64,000 nucleotides of DNA, from NCBI GenBank assembly GCA_033763215.1, contig JANRKW010000014.1:68214-132213 (forward strand), written 5' to 3'. This document shows positions 39,240-50,688 of the stretch, piece after piece (the stretch's first letter is position 1; each line of letters begins with the position of its first letter). The notes below the pieces were generated by a model. The model was not told the origin of the DNA, ran no database searches, and saw only the letters and a list, made by a program, of their open reading frames with translations. This stretch comes from Isosphaeraceae bacterium (GTDB lineage: Bacteria; Planctomycetota; Planctomycetia; Isosphaerales; Isosphaeraceae). A program made the translations under genes and the position numbers.

Positions 39240-40274
39240 ATGTCGTCCCAGCAGGTCAGGTTCCTGGTTCTCGCCGGCGTGGCCGTAGCCATCGTCGCGG
39301 CCGCTTCGACACCGACGGCGCTCGATCGAAATCTCGAGCGACTGAGATCGATGCCTCACGAGGAACGAATCCTGCTCGCGCGGGCGCTCGACGAATTCGA
39401 GAAGCTCGGCCCCGAAGATCGTGCAGCGATCGAGAAGATCGACCGGCAGATCCAGGCTCTCGACCCCACCGCTCGATCGAATTATCTGAACACGCTCAGG
39501 CGCTATCATCTGTGGCTCTCGAGATTGAGTGCCGCGGATCGCGCAAAGATTGCCGACGCTCCCGATGATGCCGCACGATTCGCGATCGTCGAGAAGCTCC
39601 GCAAGACGACGCCGAGTACGTCCTCGCTCGTTCGCACCCCCGGCCAACTCGGGGTTCCCATCGGCGACATCGGGTCGATCGCTCCGATCGAATTGGGCAA
39701 CCTGATTCGAGTCTGGTTCGCACTCGATGACCGCGAGCGGGCGAGGATCGAGTCCTTTCCGGTGGTCCGCCGGATCGCGGAACTATCTGCGATCGGATTC
39801 CAACGTCGGATCGAGGTTCGGCGGCTCCCCGAGGCCGACCAATTCGCGGCCCGAAAAGAGCTCGAGGAGCTTCCGCTCTACAAGTCGCTCCTGGCCAACA
39901 TTCGCGGCCGACAGGACAAGTCGAAGCTCGATTCCAAGGTCGGCGGGCTTCTGAAGAAGAAGCTGGAGAATCGTCCACAGGTCCTCGCGAATCCGCTGAA
40001 TCATCTCGTCGAGTCGCACTACTTCGTCCAGCATCCGCCGATTCGCGTCGAACCGAGCAATCTCGCGAGATTCGCCGCGGCGCTGCCGAGCTGGGTCAAG
40101 GACTCGATCGACCCGCTTCCCGCGGAGGAAGCACGACGCCGATTGACGATTCTTTATCGAGAGATCTACCCGCATCCGCAGGAGATGCCGAAGCCGACGA
40201 AGCAAACCGAGGTTCCTGCACCCCCGTCGCCGGGGAGACCGCCCGGTGCCGAGAAGCCGCCCCAGCCTTTCTGA
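39240..40274 (+). CDS. Hypothetical exported protein
   Basis: Signal/TM VRFLVLAGVAVAIVAAAS. Helical, Arg/Glu-rich. Ends with the Pro-rich tail PAPPSPGRPPGAEKPPQPF. Confidence 0.5.
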   Translation: MSSQQVRFLVLAGVAVAIVAAASTPTALDRNLERLRSMPHEERILLARALDEFEKLGPEDRAAIEKIDRQIQALDPTARSNYLNTLRRYHLWLSRLSAADRAKIADAPDDAARFAIVEKLRKTTPSTSSLVRTPGQLGVPIGDIGSIAPIELGNLIRVWFALDDRERARIESFPVVRRIAELSAIGFQRRIEVRRLPEADQFAARKELEELPLYKSLLANIRGRQDKSKLDSKVGGLLKKKLENRPQVLANPLNHLVESHYFVQHPPIRVEPSNLARFAAALPSWVKDSIDPLPAEEARRRLTILYREIYPHPQEMPKPTKQTEVPAPPSPGRPPGAEKPPQPF

Positions 40275-40287
40275 TGCGGATCGAGCG

Positions 40288-41436
40288 ATGAACCAGGTGA
40301 CGGCCCTCTCCACGACCGACCGGGATCGAGCGTTGATGCGCCTGGCGCTGGCGGAGGCCGAGCGATCGCGCGGGTGGGTGGAGCCGAACCCGATGGTCGG
40401 GGCCGTCGTCTCTCGCGACGGCGAGTTGATTGCGATCGGGCGTCACGAACGATTCGGCGGGCCGCATGCCGAGGTCCACGCGCTCACCGCGGCGGGAACG
40501 GCCGCACGCGGGTCGACGCTCCATGTCACGCTCGAGCCTTGTCGCCACTACGGCAAGACCCCGCCGTGTACCGAGGCGATCCTCTCCTCCGGGATCGCTC
40601 GCGTCGTGGCGGCGACAGCGGACCCATTTCCGGAAGTCGCAGGTCGTGGTTTCGAGCGACTCCGATCCGCTGGGATCGAAGTGACTGTCGGAGTCGAAGA
40701 GGCGGCGGCGCGTCGGCTGATCGCTCCGTTCGTCAAGCGCGTCGAGACTGGGAAGCCCTACGTGATCGCGAAGTGGGCGATGACTCTCGATGGACGGATT
40801 GCCACGGTCGCCGGGGAGTCCCGCTGGATCAGCGGTCCGGAGTCGCGGTCGCGGGTCCACGAGACTCGCGGGGTCGTCGACGCGATCCTGGTCGGCATCG
40901 GGACGGTGATCGCGGATGACCCGATGCTGGATGCACGCCCGCCCGGCCCGCGCACTGCGGCGCGAGTCGTGCTCGATGCCCGAGCCCGGATCCCACTCGA
41001 CTCTCGGTTGGTCCGGACGGCTCGTGACATCCCCACATGGCTCGCGGTCGGACCCGACGCGACCGGGGACGCGATCTCCACGCGAGAAGTCGCCGGCTGT
41101 AGGATCCTTCGCCTACCCGGCGACGTTCACGGTCGTCCGCTTCTCGATCCCCTGCTCCGGTCGCTCGGTGAACTCGGGGTGACCAATCTGCTGATCGAGG
41201 GCGGGGCGGGAGTCTTGGGGGCGTTCTTCGACGCGAACGAGGTCGACGAAGTCGATGTCTTCGTCGCGCCGAAGATCTTTGGAGGTGGGACTGCTCCGGG
41301 CCCAGTCGCGGGGATCGGGATCGAATCGCCCCGACTTGCGAGGAGACTCGAGGACCGGGTCGTGACCCTGCTCGGCGACGACGTCAGGATCCAGGGGCGA
41401 ACGGTACGAGCGGCCGTCGGACCCCGCCCGACTTGA
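40288..41436 (+). CDS. ribD: Bifunctional riboflavin biosynthesis protein RibD (pyrimidine deaminase / reductase)
   Basis: ATG at 40288. Deaminase zinc motif region HAEVHAL...LEPCRHYGKTPPC. Reductase domain VIAKWAMTLDGRIA...LLIEGGAGVLGAF. 382 aa. Confidence 0.9.
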   Translation: MNQVTALSTTDRDRALMRLALAEAERSRGWVEPNPMVGAVVSRDGELIAIGRHERFGGPHAEVHALTAAGTAARGSTLHVTLEPCRHYGKTPPCTEAILSSGIARVVAATADPFPEVAGRGFERLRSAGIEVTVGVEEAAARRLIAPFVKRVETGKPYVIAKWAMTLDGRIATVAGESRWISGPESRSRVHETRGVVDAILVGIGTVIADDPMLDARPPGPRTAARVVLDARARIPLDSRLVRTARDIPTWLAVGPDATGDAISTREVAGCRILRLPGDVHGRPLLDPLLRSLGELGVTNLLIEGGAGVLGAFFDANEVDEVDVFVAPKIFGGGTAPGPVAGIGIESPRLARRLEDRVVTLLGDDVRIQGRTVRAAVGPRPT

Positions 41437-41509: not shown

Positions 41510-42184
41510 GTGGGGGACCCGCGACGTGACTCTTCCGGGGAGAAAGTCGCGCCCAAGGCGGTGATCGGCCGTGTCTGTCTCTATCTCCGCCGTCTCGAGG
41601 CGATCGAGAGTCAGGGCGAGACGACCGTCTCCAGCAGCCAACTCGGCGCTGCACTTTCCATCAGCGACGCACAGGTCCGAAAGGACCTTGCGTTCTTCGG
41701 ACAATTCGGCCACCCCGGAATCGGGTATCGGATCGATGAACTCAGCGAAGAACTCCGTCGGGTCCTGGGAATCGATCGGGATTGGCCGCTTGCCTTGATC
41801 GGGCTCGGGAATCTCGGAAGAGCTCTCCTGCGTTACCGCGGCTTTCGATCGCGAGGGTTTCACATCGTCGCGATCTTCGACAACGATCCGGCGAAGATCG
41901 GCCTGTAGTTCGACGGCCTCCTCGTTCAACCGATCACGGAACTCGCGAGAATCGTCGGCGAGCGTCGAATTCAGCTCGCGGTGCTCTCCGTGCCGGCCGA
42001 CGTTGCACAGTCGACAGCCGACCTCTTGGTCGGTTGCGGCGTCACCGGGATCCTGAATTTCGCGCCGATGCCGCTGAACCTCCCGCCGCACGTCAGTGTC
42101 GTCGGTGTGGATCTCAGCATTCAACTGGAGCACTTGACATACAAGGTCCAAAACTCTCCGGGGGGGATTTCCTACTCCGGTTAG
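41510..42184 (+). pseudogene. rex: Redox-sensing repressor Rex interrupted by a single in-frame TAG at 41906..41908
   Basis: N-terminal wHTH region AVIGRVCLYLRRLE. Rossmann start LIGLGNLGRALL...IVAIFDNDPAKIGL, then TAG. The same frame continues FDGLLVQPI...QLAVLSVPADVAQSTADLLVGCGVTGILNFAPMPLNLPPHVSVVGVDLSIQLEHL, which is the canonical Rex C-terminal half. The two track ORFs 41510..41908 and 41981..42184 are in the same frame. Confidence 0.7.
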
Positions 42185-42246: not shown

Positions 42247-42317
42247 TACCCGGTGGTGTAACGGTAACACATCAGGTTTTGGTCCTGATTTTCCAGGTTC
42301 GAATCCTGGCCGGGTAA
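42247..42317 (+). tRNA. tRNA-Gln (anticodon UUG)
   Basis: Manual fold. Acceptor TACCCGG/CCGGGTA. D-arm GTGT-AACGGTA-ACAC. Anticodon stem TCAGG/CCTGA with loop TTTTGGT, so the anticodon is TTG. T-arm CCAGG-TTCGAAT-CCTGG. Discriminator A. CCA is not encoded. Confidence 0.75.
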
Positions 42318-42359: not shown

Positions 42360-44759
42360 TCAGCCTCGCGGGATACCAACTTCTCGCAAGAGATGACCAG
42401 CCGCTGCGTTCCCTGAGAGGAATGCACCCTCGATGCGGCCCTGGGCGAGCCAGTCGCCGCAGACCACGAGTCCCGATTCCGAGTCGAACAGCGTTCGTCG
42501 GTCCGAGGCGTCGGCCCCTTGGCTGAATCGCCAGCGGTGTGCCGCCTGCATGGCTGGGCGAGGTAGGACTCGGTCGCATGCCGCTTCGAGCGACTCGAGC
42601 AGGTCGAGAGCGACTTGCTCCTGTGTCGACTCGAGGTGCTTCGTCGACCACTCGGGCGACGCATGAAGGACCCATCGATCGATCCGACTCGGTCTGCCGG
42701 GTTTGGATGAATCCCGCGCGGCCCACGCGATCGAAGAGTCTTGAACGAAGGCTCCGTCCCAGGCGACGTCGAATCGCTCTTCAAAGGCCACCATCACCGC
42801 CCAGCAGGGAGTCATCGAAGTACGCCCACACTCTCGTGCGAGCGGATGATCCGCGAGCAGTTCGCTCGCCTGAGGGCCCGGAACGGCGATGATCAGTCGG
42901 TCGAATCGCCCGAGCGATCCGCCCTCCAAGTCGAAGAGTTCCCAGTCGGACCCCAAGCGTTCGAGGCGAGCGACGCGGGTCTCGCGACGAATCGCCAAAT
43001 CGATCGCAAGCCTTCCCGGCAAGGCCGACATGCCCGGGACGCCGACGAATCGCCTCTGCGGCGAGCAGTCGGTCGCAGTGCCTCGGTCGAGTCGCACGAT
43101 GCGACCAGCCCAATCGGCGACAACCCCCTGCTCCACCCAGGCCTCGACGGCACGTCGGAAGGTCGGATGTCGCGCCGTGAAGTACTGTGCTCCGTGGTCG
43201 AAGGTCAGGTCAGCGTCGACTCGACGCGTTGCGATCCTGCCCCCCGTGCCGCGTCCTTTGTCGAAGACGGACACGTCGAAGCCGTGATCGGAGAGAGTCC
43301 GCGCGGCGGTGATCCCGGCGATACCGGCGCCGATGATCGCGACGCTAGGCATCGGGTCGCGTAGCGGCCGAGTGGTCCACGCGAGATAGCGAGCGGTGTC
43401 GAGGCGTTGAGCATGGACCCGCGTCGGGCGACTTCGCACCGTACCGAGGATCGGCTGGGGCGGAGAATGAGGGCGATCGAACTGACCGAGGCACCAGAGC
43501 AATCCGCCGGAGGAGGACGGGTCGCGGCCATCGAGGGCGTAGCGGTGATTGAGATCGATGATCGACCGGAGGGCCCGCTCCGCGTCCGGCTTCCAGTGGA
43601 GCACGGCCTTGCCCCAAGTCATCCGGACATTGTTGTGGAGCTCGCCTTGGATGAGAAGCGAGAGCTGGGCTGCGTCCCAGAGCGGGTCGCCGCTTCGTCC
43701 GCGTGCAAGTGTTTCATCGTCGATGAGCATGGGGCGGGGGTCGTCGACGCGGCGGTCGAGCGAGTCCTTCGCCCAAGCGGGGATCGCTCCGATCGACTCG
43801 TGATCGGGGCGATGGAAGCAGAATGCGTGGGCGAGTTCACGCCAGATGAGGAGTTCATCGAGGTACTTCTCGGCTCCCGCTCCTCGAATCCTCGATGCTT
43901 CACGAGCGATCCGGAAGGGCGAGACCATTCCATAGTGAAGATATGCGGACATGCGACTGACTCCGTCTCGGAGTGCGTCGTTGCGGTCGTCCGCATACCG
44001 TCTGATTCGCTCGTCCTTGAATTCACTCCAGCGTGCGTACCCGGCCGCGGAGCCTCCGAGCGTGTGAGGAACCGGTGCGATCGAGTGATCGATGTCGCAT
44101 TCGGCGAGGAGTTCGCCGATCACGAGCGCAGCCGGATCGAGCGGATCGACGGGCATCTCCGGGATGCCCGAGGACACCTCGGGGTCGGGCTGTTCTTCCC
44201 AAGGGAGATCGATGCGTGCCTCGAGGAGGCGACGCGTCGCGGTCCGATAAGCAAACGCTCGATCATGGGCCTTGCCGACGAGCCTCATCGGGACGATGCA
44301 CGAAGTGTCGATGCGGATGATCGGAGCATGCGTCGACTCGGCAAGCCGCTCGACCGCGAGATCGATCGGCGGAGTCGGTAGGTCGTCCGTCACGACGAGA
44401 GCGGCATCTGACGACAGAGATCGGACCAACGAGCCGCGGGCGGTCCTGCGTTCGACATGGAGAACCGAGGCGATCCGCCGTCTCGCCAGTTCCGCATGGA
44501 ACTCCGGCGCCGCCTGGAGTTGAAACGTGTGGAATCGGTCGCAAGCGTAAGCGTCCGACTCGAGGAGTTCCTGCACGACGAGCAAGGGCAAGCCGAGCCT
44601 GCTCGCGAAGACGAGAGCGGTGTCGAGCGCAGGGTTTTCGTGAGCCCGGAGCGCGTGGTGGACCCAGTAGAGAACGAAGCGTCCCGAGGCCGAGAATTCG
44701 GTCCCGGCGACCAGTCTCGCGCGTTCGAGGAGCCGGGGCGGGAGCGTAGATTCGAGCAT
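42360..44759 (-). CDS. Fusion of a class-II-like CPD photolyase (N-terminal ~468 aa) with a COG3380/renalase-like NAD/FAD-dependent oxidoreductase (C-terminal ~330 aa)
   Basis: Photolyase part: RFVLYWVHHALRAHENPAL (the class II YWM.RD.R..DN.AL pattern) and FAD-binding C-terminal GELHNNVRMTWGKAVLHW. Oxidoreductase part starts MPSVAIIGAGIAGITAARTLSDHGFDVSVFDKGRGTGGR (GxGxxG, dinucleotide-binding) and ends ...VVCGDWLAQGRIEGAFLSGNAAA. One continuous 799-aa frame. Confidence 0.8.
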   Translation of the reverse strand: MLESTLPPRLLERARLVAGTEFSASGRFVLYWVHHALRAHENPALDTALVFASRLGLPLLVVQELLESDAYACDRFHTFQLQAAPEFHAELARRRIASVLHVERRTARGSLVRSLSSDAALVVTDDLPTPPIDLAVERLAESTHAPIIRIDTSCIVPMRLVGKAHDRAFAYRTATRRLLEARIDLPWEEQPDPEVSSGIPEMPVDPLDPAALVIGELLAECDIDHSIAPVPHTLGGSAAGYARWSEFKDERIRRYADDRNDALRDGVSRMSAYLHYGMVSPFRIAREASRIRGAGAEKYLDELLIWRELAHAFCFHRPDHESIGAIPAWAKDSLDRRVDDPRPMLIDDETLARGRSGDPLWDAAQLSLLIQGELHNNVRMTWGKAVLHWKPDAERALRSIIDLNHRYALDGRDPSSSGGLLWCLGQFDRPHSPPQPILGTVRSRPTRVHAQRLDTARYLAWTTRPLRDPMPSVAIIGAGIAGITAARTLSDHGFDVSVFDKGRGTGGRIATRRVDADLTFDHGAQYFTARHPTFRRAVEAWVEQGVVADWAGRIVRLDRGTATDCSPQRRFVGVPGMSALPGRLAIDLAIRRETRVARLERLGSDWELFDLEGGSLGRFDRLIIAVPGPQASELLADHPLARECGRTSMTPCWAVMVAFEERFDVAWDGAFVQDSSIAWAARDSSKPGRPSRIDRWVLHASPEWSTKHLESTQEQVALDLLESLEAACDRVLPRPAMQAAHRWRFSQGADASDRRTLFDSESGLVVCGDWLAQGRIEGAFLSGNAAAGHLLREVGIPRG

Positions 44760-47024: not shown

Positions 47025-47438
47025 TCAAGTCCCGGGATGGACCCACTCCTCGGTCCCGTCGGCCCAGACCTCCTTCTTCCAGATCGGAACGATCTCCTTG
47101 AGCGTGTCCATGATCCAACGACAGGACTCGAAGGCCGCGGCGCGATGAGGGGTCGAGACGGCGACGACCACGGAGATCTCGCCCAGGTCGTGCTTCCCGA
47201 GGCGATGCACGATCGCCGCCTCGATGATCGGCCAGCGCGAGCGAGCTTCCGCTTCGAGTTCCGCGAGCTTGCCCGCCGCCATCTCGGGGTAGGCTTCGTA
47301 CTCGAGCGAAGACGTTCGACGCTCGCCCGTCATTTCACGAACGGTGCCGAGAAACGCACAAACCGCCCCAGCAAGGGGTGATCGGACACGCTCGACCACC
47401 GCGGCGTAATCGATCGGAGATTCGGTGAGTTCGACCAT
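47025..47438 (-). CDS. moaE: Molybdopterin synthase catalytic subunit MoaE
   Basis: 137 aa. GAVCAFLGTVRE...LEYEAYPEMA...ISVVVAVSTPHRAAAFESCRWIMDTLKEIVPIWKKE. Confidence 0.85.
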   Translation of the reverse strand: MVELTESPIDYAAVVERVRSPLAGAVCAFLGTVREMTGERRTSSLEYEAYPEMAAGKLAELEAEARSRWPIIEAAIVHRLGKHDLGEISVVVAVSTPHRAAAFESCRWIMDTLKEIVPIWKKEVWADGTEEWVHPGT

Positions 47439-47498: not shown

Positions 47499-47744
47499 TC
47501 ATCCGCCGCTGACGGGAGGGATCGCTGCGACGTCGGCATTCGGCGGGATCGGGGTGTCGTCGTCCGCGTAGTCGGTTCCGATGGCGAACCGGATTCGGTC
47601 GATCACGGGGTCGAGGCCCGGCACCGCTTCCGAGAGAGCCCGCTTCAGGTCCGAGATCGTGCCGTGGTCGGGAACCTCGAGTTCGATCGTCGGCCGTCCG
47701 GCGCGTTCCTTGGCGATGGCGAAGAGTCGGAGTCGGATCCGCAT
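47499..47744 (-). CDS. moaD: Molybdopterin synthase sulfur-carrier subunit MoaD
   Basis: Internal ATG at 47744 (cat at 47742..47744). MRIRLRLFAIAKERAG...ends VAAIPPVSGG, the ubiquitin-like Gly-Gly C-terminus. 81 aa. Immediately upstream of moaE. Confidence 0.75.
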   Translation of the reverse strand: MRIRLRLFAIAKERAGRPTIELEVPDHGTISDLKRALSEAVPGLDPVIDRIRFAIGTDYADDDTPIPPNADVAAIPPVSGG

Positions 47745-47913: not shown

Positions 47914-50688
47914 ATGAAGACGGAGACCGAAGGAGAGTGGATCCGGATTCGCGGAGCACGAGTGCACAATCTCCGTGATGTCGACGTCGACATCCCGCGC
48001 AATCGGTTCGTGGTCTTGACGGGGGTGAGCGGGTCGGGGAAATCGACCTTGGCCTTCGACACGATCCACGCGGAGGGACGTCGACGATACGTCGATGGGC
48101 TCTCCAGCCATGCCCGGAGGTTTCTCGATCAACTCGAGCGGCCCGACGTCGACGAGATCGAGGGGTTGCCGCCGACCGTTGCGATCGATCAGAGGTCCGG
48201 ATCGGCGAACCCGAGGAGCACGGTCGCGACGTTGACGGAGATCCACGATCATCTCCGATTGCTCTACGCTCGCGTCGGGACGCCGCACTGTGCGGGGTGC
48301 GGCGGGGAGATTCGACGGCAGTCGCCCGAGCAGGTCGTGTCGTCGATCCTGTCGCTCCCTGACGGGACGAAACTGATTCTCCTGGCCCCGCTGGTTCGGG
48401 GCCGCAAGGGCGAGCATCGCGAGGCGTTCGATGCAATCCGCCGCGCCGGTCTGCTCCGAGCGAGGGTCGACGGAGAAACGATCGAGATTCAAGAGGATCC
48501 GAAGCTCGCGAAGACCAAGGCGCACCGGATCGAGGCGGTGGTGGATCGCCTCGTGGTTCGCGAGGGCATCCGCCCCCGTCTCGCCGAGAGCGTCGACGCC
48601 GCTCTACGACTCGGAGACGGCGCGATCGTGGTCTCAGTCCAAGAAGGGGCCGAATGGATCGACCGACCTTCGAGCATCCATTACGCTTGCCCCAGTTGCG
48701 GGACGAGCCTGGAAGAGTTGGAGCCGCGGACCTTCAGCTTCAACAGTCCGTATGGTGCGTGTCCGAGTTGCGACGGCCTTGGGAGCATCGCCTCGTTCGA
48801 GCCGGACGCGGTGTTGCGCGACCCTGGTCGATCGCTCGACAGTGGTCTCGTCGCAGCCTGGGAGGCGCTCGGGCCGCGGTCCCGACAGCGTGAGTCGACC
48901 GATCCCGGTCTCGAAGCGTTTCTGAGTGCGTTCAAGATCAGCCGGAGCAAGCCTTTTCGGGCCTGGAGCTCGAAAGCCCGCGATGGATTCCTCCGCGGAA
49001 CGAACGAGTACGCAGGCGTTCTCCGACGCCTCGCCGAACTCTACGAGGCAACGACCGACTCGGAGCGGGCGACGCTCGAGTCGTTTCGAGTCGTTCGCCC
49101 CTGTGCGTCGTGCGGAGGGGCCCGCTTGAGACCCGAGGCCCGAGCCGTACTGATCGAATCGACGTCGATCGATCGGCTTTGCGGGCTGTCGATCCGAAGC
49201 GCTCGGGGCTTTCTCGCGCAGTGGACGCCCTCCCTGGAGGCCTCCGCGATCGCCCGGCCGATCCTGGCCGAGGTCGAGCGGCGGCTCGGCTTTCTCGAGC
49301 AAGTGGGTCTCGGCTACTTGACGCTCGATCGCTCCGCCGACACTCTCTCGGGCGGCGAGCTCCAGAGAGTGCGTCTCGGCAGTCAAGTGGGTTCGGGACT
49401 GGTCGGTGTCTGTTACGTCCTCGACGAGCCGACCGCCGGCCTGCACCCCTCGGATACCGAGCGATTGCTCTCCACCCTCGTCGAGCTGCGCGACCGAGGA
49501 AACAGTCTCGTCGTCGTCGAGCACGATGAACTGACGATCCGTCGCGCCGATTGGCTCATCGATCTCGGTCCCGGCGCGGGGATCGAGGGCGGTCGAGTCG
49601 TGGAGCGCGGATTTCCGGCCGACGTGGTCGCTCGCGGGGAGACTCTCACCGCCCAGTATCTTGGCCGCGAGCCTGGATCGATCGTTCCGAGACATCGCTC
49701 GATGCCAACGCATTGGATCTCGATCAAGGATGCACGCGCGAACAATCTTCGAGGGATCGACGTGGACTTTCCGCTCGGGCGGTTGATCTGCGTGACGGGC
49801 GTGAGCGGCTCGGGAAAGAGCACGCTCGTGCACGAGATCCTCGCCCGAGCCTGCAGGCGTGTGCTCGCAGGGTCTGACCCCGGTTCGACCGATCATGGTG
49901 GGGTGATCGGGCTCGAACGCATCGACAAGGTGATCGAGGTCGATCAAGCTCCGCTGGGGAAGGGATCGCGCTCGACCCCCGCCACCTACACCGGTCTCTT
50001 CGACGAGATCCGCCGCGTCTATGCTCGAATGCGCGAGTCGAAGATTCGAGGCTTCGGTGCCGGCAGGTTCAGCTTCAATGCCAAGCCTGGTAGGTGCGAG
50101 CGTTGCGCGGGTCTCGGGGTACGACGCATCGAAATGGGATTCCTGCCGGCGATCGAGATCCGCTGCGAGTCGTGCAATGGACTCCGCTTCAATCCCTCGA
50201 CACTCGAAGTGAAGTTCCGCGGCAAGTCGATCGGCGAGGTACTCGGGATGCGAGTCGACGAAGCTCTCGAGATCTTCGAGAACGTTCCTCGCGTCAAGCG
50301 TGGACTCGAGTCGTTGCGTGAGGCCGGGCTGGGATACGTCGCGCTCGGCCAATCGAGCACGACGCTCTCGGGTGGCGAGTCTCAGCGAGTCAAGCTCGCG
50401 GCGGAACTCGGTAAGGCAGCGACCGGGAACACGCTCTACATCCTCGACGAACCGACCACCGGACTCCACTTTGCCGATACCGAGCGATTGCTGGCGCTCC
50501 TCGATCGATTGGTCGATCTCGGGAACACCGTCTTGGTGATCGAACACGCTCTCGAGGTCATCCGTCGCGCCGATTGGGTGATCGATCTCGGGCCCGGCGG
50601 GGGAGAAGAAGGCGGCGAGCTCATCGCCTCGGGGCCGCCGGAAGCGATTCGAGAGGTCGAACGCAGCCTCACCGGTCGCTGGATCTGA
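47914..50688 (+). CDS. uvrA: Excinuclease ABC subunit A
   Basis: 924 aa. Two ABC modules (GVSGSGKST twice). Zinc-finger Cys pairs CAGCGG, CPSCG, CASCGG, CERCAG, CESCNG. LSGGE signature motifs. By my reading the ATG is at 47915, one base off from the track. Confidence 0.95.
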   Translation: MKTETEGEWIRIRGARVHNLRDVDVDIPRNRFVVLTGVSGSGKSTLAFDTIHAEGRRRYVDGLSSHARRFLDQLERPDVDEIEGLPPTVAIDQRSGSANPRSTVATLTEIHDHLRLLYARVGTPHCAGCGGEIRRQSPEQVVSSILSLPDGTKLILLAPLVRGRKGEHREAFDAIRRAGLLRARVDGETIEIQEDPKLAKTKAHRIEAVVDRLVVREGIRPRLAESVDAALRLGDGAIVVSVQEGAEWIDRPSSIHYACPSCGTSLEELEPRTFSFNSPYGACPSCDGLGSIASFEPDAVLRDPGRSLDSGLVAAWEALGPRSRQRESTDPGLEAFLSAFKISRSKPFRAWSSKARDGFLRGTNEYAGVLRRLAELYEATTDSERATLESFRVVRPCASCGGARLRPEARAVLIESTSIDRLCGLSIRSARGFLAQWTPSLEASAIARPILAEVERRLGFLEQVGLGYLTLDRSADTLSGGELQRVRLGSQVGSGLVGVCYVLDEPTAGLHPSDTERLLSTLVELRDRGNSLVVVEHDELTIRRADWLIDLGPGAGIEGGRVVERGFPADVVARGETLTAQYLGREPGSIVPRHRSMPTHWISIKDARANNLRGIDVDFPLGRLICVTGVSGSGKSTLVHEILARACRRVLAGSDPGSTDHGGVIGLERIDKVIEVDQAPLGKGSRSTPATYTGLFDEIRRVYARMRESKIRGFGAGRFSFNAKPGRCERCAGLGVRRIEMGFLPAIEIRCESCNGLRFNPSTLEVKFRGKSIGEVLGMRVDEALEIFENVPRVKRGLESLREAGLGYVALGQSSTTLSGGESQRVKLAAELGKAATGNTLYILDEPTTGLHFADTERLLALLDRLVDLGNTVLVIEHALEVIRRADWVIDLGPGGGEEGGELIASGPPEAIREVERSLTGRWI

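Follow-up and report, generated by a model that had tools for sequence, protein, structure and literature searches.

Why would a bacterium join a photolyase and a renalase-type FAD oxidoreductase in one polypeptide, and is the joined protein real? An earlier note on this DNA had read the locus as a covalent fusion with a domain boundary at about 468/330 aa, which proved right within a few residues, and the four peptide strings that it quoted are all found within the 799-aa ORF. This ORF has an ATG start and no internal stop and runs in one frame throughout (ORF list), the GC content is unbroken along the gene, and in a sequence search the full protein was a 100% match to the NCBI entry 'MAG: FAD-dependent oxidoreductase [Isosphaeraceae bacterium]'. 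A Pfam search on both halves, proposed as a check in the earlier note, assigned photolyase domains to the first (DNA_photolyase, aa 29-184; FAD_binding_7, aa 304-382, weak) and NAD/FAD oxidoreductase domains to the second (NAD_binding_8, aa 475-537; Amino_oxidase, aa 574-790). Judged from its sequence, its product is a true bifunctional flavoprotein with two predicted activities. Its features are listed in Table 1 in coordinates of the window, by which we mean the whole 64,000-nucleotide stretch of DNA that was analyzed.

Table 1. Features of the fusion gene, with positions counted from the first nucleotide of the window.
Feature	Position	Strand	Basis
Complete photolyase-renalase fusion gene, 799 aa	42360..44759	-	Stop codon 42360-42362; ORF list
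Predicted class II CPD photolyase module, aa 1-464	43368..44759	-	TIGR00591, 2XRY match, Foldseek
N-terminal alpha/beta (DNA_photolyase) subdomain, aa 29-184	44208..44675	-	PF00875 E 1.4e-6, profile 1-157 of 164
FAD-binding helical subdomain, aa 236-445	43425..44054	-	MmCPDII alignment and 42 fusion homologues
Class II tryptophan triad stretch	43593..43679	-	W361 43677-43679, W382 43614-43616, W389 43593-43595
Junction, aa 460-471 (AWTTRPLRDPMP)	43347..43382	-	Short, fixed length; 42-homologue alignment
Putative renalase (2-/6-dihydro-NAD(P) oxidase-type) FAD module, aa 472-795	42375..43346	-	3KKJ/4ZCC match, fold, conserved positions
GxGxxG dinucleotide-binding motif of the renalase FAD site (G477, G479, G482)	43314..43331	-	NAD_binding_8; invariant

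The locus could be an artefact or pseudogene, produced when a sequencing frameshift in a metagenome-assembled genome (MAG) merged two separate genes. The window does derive from a MAG, the neighboring Rex gene has an in-frame stop, and related loci L012, L035, L076, L083, L085, and L086 are visibly frameshifted. Against this, the frame of the fusion gene is continuous and the ~800-aa architecture was found by sequence search in at least 120 clusters of 90% identity, at 49-62% identity. The same junction recurs in more than 120 clusters, including isolates that carry the fusion on long contigs (Rubripirellula reticaptiva, Novipirellula sp. SH528, and Planctomycetales bacterium 10988), and the search for the same fusion in other Planctomycetes that the earlier note had recommended was thus successful. 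Intact fusions account for 35 of the best 80 GTDB loci, and 110 of the 120 closest photolyase-domain relatives have renalase-domain Pfam matches as well. Because the gene is a single frame and the same architecture occurs in isolates, we exclude a frameshift or an assembly chimera, as do the continuity of GC content and the indel-free junction, and the chance that the gene is an artefact or pseudogene is negligible. The claim that the covalent fusion is real therefore stands.

The junction itself is of fixed length. Residues 440-480 show zero gaps or insertions across 42 homologues, column 470 is Met in 20 of them, and Pro471 is present in 36; Met470 is a possible relic of a renalase start codon. 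An AF2 model of the 799 aa reached a pTM of 0.90, where about 0.58 would be expected by our own arithmetic for independently placed domains, and this implies a defined inter-domain geometry in the predicted structure. A rigid predicted interface together with an indel-free linker exceeds what simple co-expression needs and leaves room for direct redox coupling.

The earlier assignment of the N-terminal half to the class II-type photolyases is borne out by profile, structure, and residue comparisons. TIGR00591 (phr2, NCBIfam) aligned to aa 12-459 over model positions 6-450 of 453 (E 2.3e-79), and aa 28-443 matched the Methanosarcina mazei class II photolyase MmCPDII (2XRY), with E values of 2e-53 to 7e-54 in a PDB sequence search. 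The photolyase fold is present in the model (pLDDT 87.6), with Foldseek TM scores of 0.86-0.88 normalized to the MmCPDII chains. Invariant in 42 fusion homologues are the Trp triad W382-W361-W389 (MmCPDII W381-W360-W388), the FAD-N5 Asn N404 (MmCPDII N403), and the CPD-pocket residues E302, W306, M380, W422, and R259/N260 (MmCPDII E301, W305, M379, W421, and R256/N257). From these residues and the fold, the N-terminal module is predicted to be a full-length class II CPD photolyase. Its phr2 score of 267.8 bits lies below the curated NCBIfam membership cutoff of 550, which places this half in a divergent class II clade and makes it non-canonical by the NCBI threshold. H405 aligns with MmCPDII D404, an Asp-to-His change that is invariant among the fusion homologues; the position of MmCPDII Tyr380 is an invariant Thr in the fusions, and Tyr345 is not conserved. 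Given the divergent clade, the change at D404, and the loss of Y345 and Y380, the substrate preference is not certain.

MmCPDII (2XRY/2XRZ) and rice PhrII (3UMV) share the full-length fold, triad, N5 Asn, and lesion-pocket residues with the photolyase half of the fusion, but identity by structural alignment is only 26-28%, and none of the solved photolyases in the Foldseek comparison has a C-terminal 330-aa flavoenzyme. A preprint on PhrSph98-like bacterial class II photolyases (bioRxiv 10.1101/2022.06.29.498140) includes planctomycetes in a tree figure that marks PHR2 and COG3380 domains, so the fusion architecture has been seen previously; the COG3380 domain is marked in the figure without discussion in the text. 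At the Tyr389 position, nodes 13-14 of that tree carry Thr or Leu, and Thr is also the residue of the window protein; the preprint leaves these two nodes out of the bifunctional CPD/(6-4) group that it proposes. The literature searched contained no discussion of photolyase-renalase pairing, which agrees with the earlier view that the partnership is biochemically uncharacterized.

The C-terminal half had been described as a COG3380-type FAD oxidoreductase of the renalase family, and both its PDB matches and the JGI names of its homologues support this. In the PDB search, aa 473-794 matched residues 5-327 of 336 of bacterial renalase (3KKJ/4ZCC) at E ~1e-75 to 1e-76, and structural alignment of the modeled module with 4ZCC gave a TM of 0.92, an rmsd of 1.8 A, and 42% identity; VioA, the next-best PDB family, matches the Rossmann motif only. 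The biochemically characterized Pseudomonas renalase, a 2-/6-dihydro-NAD(P) oxidase known here through the 2015 study as cited in PMC7660482, thus aligns end to end with the fused module, its full-length orthologue, but it is a free 328-aa protein, whereas the fused module is tethered to the photolyase by a fixed linker of roughly 10 residues. Human renalase (3QJ4) has the fold family and FAD-binding motif in common with the fused module but is a distant relative only (E 1.6e-12); its reported chemistry on NAD(P)H isomers is the same as that of bacterial renalase. Renalases oxidize 1,2- and 1,6-NAD(P)H (PMC7660482), isomers that inhibit dehydrogenases and are generated when reduction is radical, photochemical, or electrochemical (PMC7660482, PMC8669784). 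The characterized renalases are oxidases that barely use 1,4-NAD(P)H (PMC7660482).

As a proxy for the published catalytic residues of renalase, we used 48 family-conserved positions, each at least 90% conserved in 118 stand-alone renalases, and compared them with 34 fused members, in which their conservation was similar. The window protein carries all 48 except S746, where the family consensus is Ala. G477, G479, and G482 are invariant across fusion homologues, and G788 is the sole fusion-specific position in the renalase domain in the same comparison. Mean renalase-domain identity was 42% among fused members, 41% between fused and stand-alone members, and 41% among stand-alone members. With the conserved positions kept and these means equal, there is no sign of altered renalase function, and the fused domain has most likely retained renalase activity.

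Genes of this oxidoreductase family had been said to neighbor photolyase genes, and a survey of the 80 closest renalase loci in GTDB species-representative genomes agrees. Fused genes (35) and split fusions (2) made up 37 of the loci and came from Planctomycetota, Rhodothermales, Chromatiaceae, and Desulfosarcina; another 37 were stand-alone. A photolyase-family gene lay within 10 kb of 8 of these 37 stand-alone renalase genes (binomial P ~1e-8 against a background assumed at 1.2%), and none lay within that distance of the remaining 29. The commonest neighbor family, at stand-alone and fused loci alike, was DPRP (FeS-BCP photolyase family), with a same-strand order of renalase then DPRP at L006, L069, L079, and L081; at L047 a canonical photolyase is followed by renalase. 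Fused genes also neighbor other photolyases, Fpg, phytoene synthase, and NmrA/SDR proteins. Overall, the linkage involves three photolyase classes and extends over Planctomycetota, Acidobacteriota, Myxococcota, Gammaproteobacteria, and others. The fusion makes permanent a partnership that occurs in many bacteria as neighboring genes, and it probably arose when the stop codon separating adjacent photolyase and renalase genes was lost. Three of four apparent stand-alone photolyases of the fused clade that were checked have a renalase ORF directly downstream; their junctions look frameshifted or deleted, and we did not accept them as clean evidence of naturally split genes. In a neighbor-joining tree and nearest-neighbor analysis of 152 renalase domains, the topology was star-like, with 23 parsimony changes and within-group identity equal to between-group identity, a picture compatible with one origin of the fused domains as well as with several.

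A related arrangement is found in Pseudomonas, where the gene immediately upstream of RudS-LitR-PhrB encodes a renalase with 93% identity to 3KKJ. At this LitR/PplR1 light-inducible phrB cluster (PMC9758184), physical linkage connects the renalase gene with a photolyase gene and other photoprotective genes, but each is a gene of its own and the photolyase is of class I type, whereas the window holds a fused class II type. The 'FAD-dependent oxidoreductase' inside the phrB operon was considered as the renalase and rejected, as it is a different 415-aa protein of the amine-oxidase type; a 413-aa amine-oxidase gene of the same kind follows the fusion in the close homologue P0011. The renalase gene itself sits upstream of the light-inducible promoter that was mapped, and the published list of induced genes does not include it. 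For P. mendocina, that list (>2-fold, from a single RNA-seq replicate) comprises PME_6625 to PME_6655 plus PME_6670, without PME_6660, which should be the renalase by synteny with other Pseudomonas species. Since PME_6660 is missing from the list, adjacency is no proof of co-regulation.

Within the window, the fusion gene is surrounded by genes for RibD, Rex, an Ig-domain protein, MoaA, and MoaE. No LitR/MerR gene occurs among the annotated ORFs of the window, and the locus does not qualify as a light-inducible operon of the LitR/CarH type; no other photolyase-family gene lies within the 64 kb, and a promoter and terminator scan around the fusion gene gave nothing usable. RibD, Rex, tRNA-Gln, MoaA/E/D, and UvrA were considered as functional partners and rejected. 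Close fusion homologues have different neighbors, and the context in the window is therefore treated as coincidental. Related loci elsewhere do show light-type clusters of photolyase and photoprotection genes.

The domain identities, the conserved catalytic residues, the conserved junction (with its rigidity predicted by the model), and the gene linkage across phyla are directly established. The best explanation of them, in our view, is paired repair by a bifunctional photolyase-renalase, one module mending light damage in DNA and the other in the NAD(P)H pool, and we give this about an even chance of being correct. The photolyase module would split cyclobutane pyrimidine dimers with the help of FADH- and blue or near-UV light, after photoactivation via the W382-W361-W389 chain, while the renalase module, with its own FAD, would oxidize NAD(P)H in its non-physiological 1,2- and 1,6-dihydro forms back to NAD(P)+ and pass the electrons to O2. 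One-electron chemistry driven by UV or blue light, including reduction of the terminal Trp radical by NAD(P)H, may yield NAD radicals, and those re-reduced at the wrong ring position would become inhibitory isomers. A renalase held rigidly beside the photolyase could clear these isomers at the site and moment of their formation. In the photoreduction of class II photolyases, NAD(P)H serves as a reductant according to Ignatz et al. 2018, as cited in PMC12723161. We infer here that each module has its predicted enzyme activity and that the renalase substrate arises through light.

Alternatively, in a refinement of the idea in the earlier note, the renalase-type FAD may take electrons from NAD(P)H or its isomers and feed them to the photolyase instead of O2, making the enzyme self-activating through a built-in reductase; the electrons would go to the surface Trp389 radical formed in photoactivation or to the catalytic FAD. 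The fixed-length junction and the defined geometry implied by the model are consistent with this, as is the invariance of H405 (Asp in M. mazei) beside the N5-contacting Asn. At least one genome, MAG MFD03804.bin.2.65, has a stand-alone renalase (L064) plus a fusion (L038), which suggests a specialized role for the fused copy. Moreover, class II enzymes accept NAD(P)H as a reductant in vitro, by the account given in PMC12723161, and the physiological reductant of photolyases is an open question in the field. However, no family-conserved renalase position shows a fusion-specific change, G788 alone being specific to the fusions, and an electron donor of this kind would depart from the characterized renalases, with their oxidase chemistry and poor use of 1,4-NAD(P)H. 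Renalase genes also pair with three structurally different photolyase classes, mostly as separate genes, which argues against docking dedicated to the surface of a single photolyase. The earlier note had proposed that the partner re-reduces the photolyase flavin directly or acts on the antenna cofactor; neither proposal is supported here, the former is less likely than paired repair, and we regard a built-in reductase as improbable. A self-contained, NAD(P)H-coupled photolyase, in which the renalase-type flavin would sit within electron-transfer range of W389 and either feed photoactivation or capture nicotinamide radical or isomer products, seems to us equally doubtful.

It is also conceivable that both enzymes are simply needed under light, UV, or oxidative stress and became joined by accidental loss of a stop codon within an operon, with neither chemical nor physical coupling between them. 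Met470, followed by a typical renalase N terminus, suggests a read-through fusion of adjacent genes, the neighbors of related loci make up a loose island of photoprotection and DNA repair, and fused and free renalase domains are indistinguishable by sequence. Mere co-expression does not readily account for a linker that stays free of indels across ~50% sequence divergence, for the confidently predicted rigid interface, or for the persistence of the fusion in several phyla, and the Pseudomonas renalase adjoins a light operon yet is absent from the published light-induced list. We consider this account rather unlikely.

The fusion bears on which reductant serves the photolyase flavin in living cells, with NAD(P)H as one candidate in the class II family, and on the cellular source of 2-/6-dihydro-NAD(P), whose oxidation by renalase is well defined in vitro, and why bacteria keep renalase. 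If the NAD(P)H-coupled reading were true, it would reveal both the physiological electron source of photolyase activation and a natural, light-driven origin of renalase substrates. The conserved, predicted-rigid fusion and the recurrent linkage to three photolyase classes suggest that light is the missing context of renalase, and together the fusion and the pairing of neighboring genes point to an as yet unstudied connection of NAD(P)H repair with light stress. If paired repair is correct, cofactor repair would join the bacterial response to light and UV stress.

The fusion gene holds up as one intact reading frame: its 799 codons contain every peptide quoted in the earlier note, and GC content stays at 0.61-0.69 through the gene without a break. 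The domain identities proposed there, a class II-type photolyase joined to a renalase-type oxidoreductase, proved right in Pfam, NCBIfam and PDB matches to the two halves. The NCBIfam phr2 model for class II photolyases aligns over positions 6-450 of 453 with aa 12-459 (E 2.3e-79), at a score of 267.8 bits that lies below the curated cutoff of 550. Among PDB sequences, the Methanosarcina mazei class II CPD photolyase (MmCPDII) matches aa 28-443 (E about 1e-53) and the rice class II photolyase more weakly, while residues 5-327 of 336 of the Pseudomonas renalases 3KKJ and 4ZCC match aa 473-794 (E about 1e-75).

Fusion gene, its Pfam domains and neighbouring genes in the window
Feature	Position	Strand	Remarks
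RibD (riboflavin biosynthesis deaminase/reductase)	40246-41436	+	about 1 kb from fusion gene
Rex-type redox-sensing repressor gene	41510-42150	+	Put_DNA-bind_N and start of CoA_binding
tRNA-Gln(TTG)	42247-42317	+	43 nt past fusion stop codon, opposite strand
Photolyase-renalase fusion	42360-44759	-	single ORF, 799 aa, ATG start
DNA_photolyase	aa 29-184		Pfam
FAD_binding_7	aa 304-382		Pfam, weak
NAD_binding_8	aa 475-537		Pfam
Amino_oxidase	aa 574-790		Pfam
MoaA	45918-46916	-	molybdopterin cluster
MoaE	47025-47438	-	molybdopterin cluster
MoaD, probable	about 47499-47740	-	molybdopterin cluster; ends ...PPVSGG
UvrA	47914-50688	+	924 aa; adjoins molybdopterin cluster

Several neighbours in the window deserve mention in their own right. 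The Rex-type gene, convergent with the fusion gene, is broken by an in-frame TAG at 41906-41908, after which good Rex-like sequence resumes in the same frame; possible explanations are a nonsense mutation, a pseudogene or a sequencing error in the MAG, and in the related loci examined no Rex gene was found beside the fusion. The tRNA gene sits in a local GC dip (0.54). RibD lies close to the fusion gene, which encodes a double flavoprotein, but this adjacency is not conserved in relatives. UvrA, which also serves UV repair, lies about 3 kb from the fusion, probably by coincidence.

We rejected the possibility that the fusion is an artefact. A search of 5.8 billion proteins, counted in 90%-identity clusters, returned an identical protein in an Isosphaeraceae MAG and at least 120 further clusters of about 800 aa (query cover 95-100%, identity 49-62%). 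The same architecture was thus found in other Planctomycetes, including long isolate contigs of Rubripirellula reticaptiva, Novipirellula sp. SH528 and Planctomycetales bacterium 10988. An alignment of 42 homologues has no gaps or insertions across the junction (aa 440-480), and renalase-domain Pfam matches also occur in 110 of the 120 best hits to the photolyase half searched alone.

In the photolyase half, the MmCPDII tryptophan triad W381/W360/W388 aligns with W382/W361/W389, the FAD-N5 asparagine N403 with N404, and the lesion-pocket residues E301, W305, M379, W421 and R256/N257 with E302, W306, M380, W422 and R259/N260, all of them invariant across the 42 homologues. By contrast, MmCPDII D404 and Y380 are replaced by invariant His405 and Thr381, and the counterpart of Y345 is variable. 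With catalytic residues kept and these three positions changed, the half has the appearance of a functional, though divergent, class II CPD photolyase.

The renalase half shows no sign of changed chemistry at the level of sequence. When 1.84 billion representatives were searched exhaustively with HMMER, 2,445 clusters matched the renalase domain at E<1e-30; of the top 150, 28 were about 800 aa long, 5 were fragments with a photolyase N-terminus and the other 117 were stand-alone proteins of about 330 aa. All positions conserved at 90% or more in 118 stand-alone domains, including the GxGxxG motif, are similarly conserved in 34 fused ones (the window protein among them), and G788 is the only fusion-specific position. 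Mean pairwise identity is 42% between fused domains, 41% between fused and stand-alone domains and 41% between stand-alone ones. Characterised renalases oxidise 1,2- and 1,6-dihydro-NAD(P), dehydrogenase inhibitors that arise by radical, photochemical or electrochemical reduction, to NAD(P)+ (PMC7660482; PMC8669784).

To map the distribution, we ran a renalase-domain profile against a single genome for each GTDB species and analysed the best 80 of at least 599 matches. These comprised 35 intact fusions, 2 frameshift-split fusions, 37 stand-alone renalases (more than 1.5 kb of upstream sequence, no class II photolyase within 10 kb) and 6 loci too short to classify. Among these loci, fusions occur chiefly in Planctomycetota (Pirellulaceae, Planctomycetaceae, Mariniblastus, Rhodopirellula europaea, Alienimonas chondri) and also in Rhodothermales, Desulfosarcina, Chromatiaceae (Halochromatium glycolicum DSM 11080) and 'delta-proteobacterial' MAGs; source names of the best 120 photolyase-half hits add Alphaproteobacteria, Acidobacteriota, Myxococcota and Deinococcus-Thermus MAGs.

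The earlier note stated that such oxidoreductase genes neighbour photolyase genes in several bacteria, and the stand-alone loci bear this out. When the two closest ORFs on each side were compared with Pfam, the commonest neighbour family was DPRP (the FeS-BCP/(6-4) photolyase family; 4 of 37 loci), with FAD_binding_7 at 2 more. Within 10-kb flanks, 8 of 37 loci carry a photolyase-family gene (binomial P 1.2e-8 against an assumed background of 1.2% per random 20-kb window; 1e-5 at 3%): renalase is followed by an abutting same-strand DPRP gene in four (L006, L069, L079, L081), DPRP lies within about 3 kb in three (L025, L028, L067), and a canonical DNA_photolyase+FAD_binding_7 gene abuts renalase in L047. 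Flanks of fused genes contain DPRP (4 loci), canonical photolyases (3), Fpg (3), amine-oxidase-type (4), NmrA/epimerase (3) and phytoene synthase (2) genes. One Pirellulaceae MAG holds a dense 'photolyase island' (L014, 2567-11071), where two more photolyase/cryptochrome-family genes and one of DPRP type accompany the fusion within a single 10-kb stretch. Fasciclin, NmrA/DUF2867, DUF427 and SDR genes recur around renalase/photolyase loci of unrelated phyla (L001, L086, neighbour sets A3/A4) and are possible members of the same set of light-stress genes.

In Pseudomonas, a protein 93% identical to 3KKJ and its P. tohonis orthologue are encoded directly upstream of, and on the same strand as, a cluster ordered RudS, MerR/B12-type LitR, PhrB, SnoaL, SDR, a 415-aa amine oxidase, DUF1365 and CMAS, which is the light-inducible PplR1/PmlR1 cluster (PMC9758184). 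At the Pseudomonas loci L087 (9001-18955) and L088 (9001-18883), renalase of the biochemically characterised type heads the RudS-to-CMAS cluster and a divergent ferrochelatase gene lies upstream. Two points call for caution. The mapped light-inducible promoter falls between renalase and RudS. In P. mendocina RNA-seq (n=1; PMC9758184), PME_6625 to PME_6655 and PME_6670 were induced more than 2-fold (Table S1) and ferrochelatase is listed as light-induced; PME_6660, presumably the renalase gene by synteny, is absent from the >2-fold list. The 'FAD-dependent oxidoreductase' of the Pseudomonas phrB operon was rejected as a renalase candidate, being the 415-aa protein.

The junction consensus, ...RLDxxxY-xxxx-TRPxxxP-M-P-R-VAVIGAG, includes a linker methionine (Met470, window 43350-43352) that is present in 20 of the 42 homologues, three residues ahead of the renalase beta-1 strand and followed by an apparently normal renalase N-terminus. 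It might represent the remnant of an earlier start codon, or a site of internal initiation from which free renalase is made. The sequence fits a fusion that arose when a photolyase gene was read through into a renalase gene behind it. Members of the clade that seem to be 'photolyase-only' are in most cases followed closely by a renalase ORF, with a seemingly frameshifted or deleted junction, so no clean natural split genes were demonstrated among those checked. In one metagenome contig (L086, 6120-6400) the photolyase frame stops early and the renalase frame restarts past the Rossmann motif, with about 80 aa around the junction apparently missing, either through decay of the fusion gene or through assembly error.

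The AlphaFold2 model, computed from the alignment of 42 sequences, reaches a mean pLDDT of 87.6 and a pTM of 0.90, with low confidence limited to aa 428-440. By our own arithmetic, a pTM of about 0.58 would be expected if the two domains (464 and 335 residues) were placed independently, a difference that suggests a defined inter-domain arrangement. In Foldseek, the C-terminal half superimposes on 4ZCC (TM 0.92, rmsd 1.8 A, 42% identity) and the N-terminal half on MmCPDII (TM 0.86-0.88); no solved chain covering both halves was found.

Both halves should work as their families do. Why they are joined may be that both mend light damage, a reading to which we give an even chance. Across phyla, renalase genes are linked to photolyase genes of three different classes, the renalase domain keeps its sequence in fusions, and the neighbours are other photoprotective genes. 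The formation of NAD(P)H isomers by one-electron or photochemical reduction (PMC7660482) also fits, as does the role of NAD(P)H as reductant in class II photolyase photoreduction (Ignatz 2018, as cited in PMC12723161). The halves may instead be merely co-expressed, with no further coupling; this seems rather unlikely, and is hard to tell from paired repair with sequence data alone.

The indel-free linker and the predicted pTM hint at more than co-expression. In one Pirellulaceae MAG (MFD03804.bin.2.65), a free renalase (L064) exists beside the fused one (L038), so in that genome the fusion is not the sole source of renalase. We therefore keep as an option, if a still less likely one, that electrons pass from the renalase flavin to the Trp389 radical. 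The suggestion of the earlier note that the partner acts on the photolyase flavin is a conjecture and less likely than paired repair of light damage, the reading that we prefer.

Public records name the architecture 'FAD-dependent oxidoreductase' (NCBI), 'photolyase PhrII' or 'predicted NAD/FAD-dependent oxidoreductase/deoxyribodipyrimidine photolyase' (both JGI), and it appears uncommented as domain labels in one preprint figure (bioRxiv 10.1101/2022.06.29.498140). Full-text literature searches (renalase + photolyase, COG3380, renalase + metabolite repair) found no paper discussing the pairing; both enzymes are known, and neither their conserved fusion nor their wider linkage in genomes is described in the literature searched. 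Drawn so far from comparative evidence only, the pairing is a concrete lead, cheap to check, on what bacterial renalase does in the cell and on how photolyases are photoactivated.
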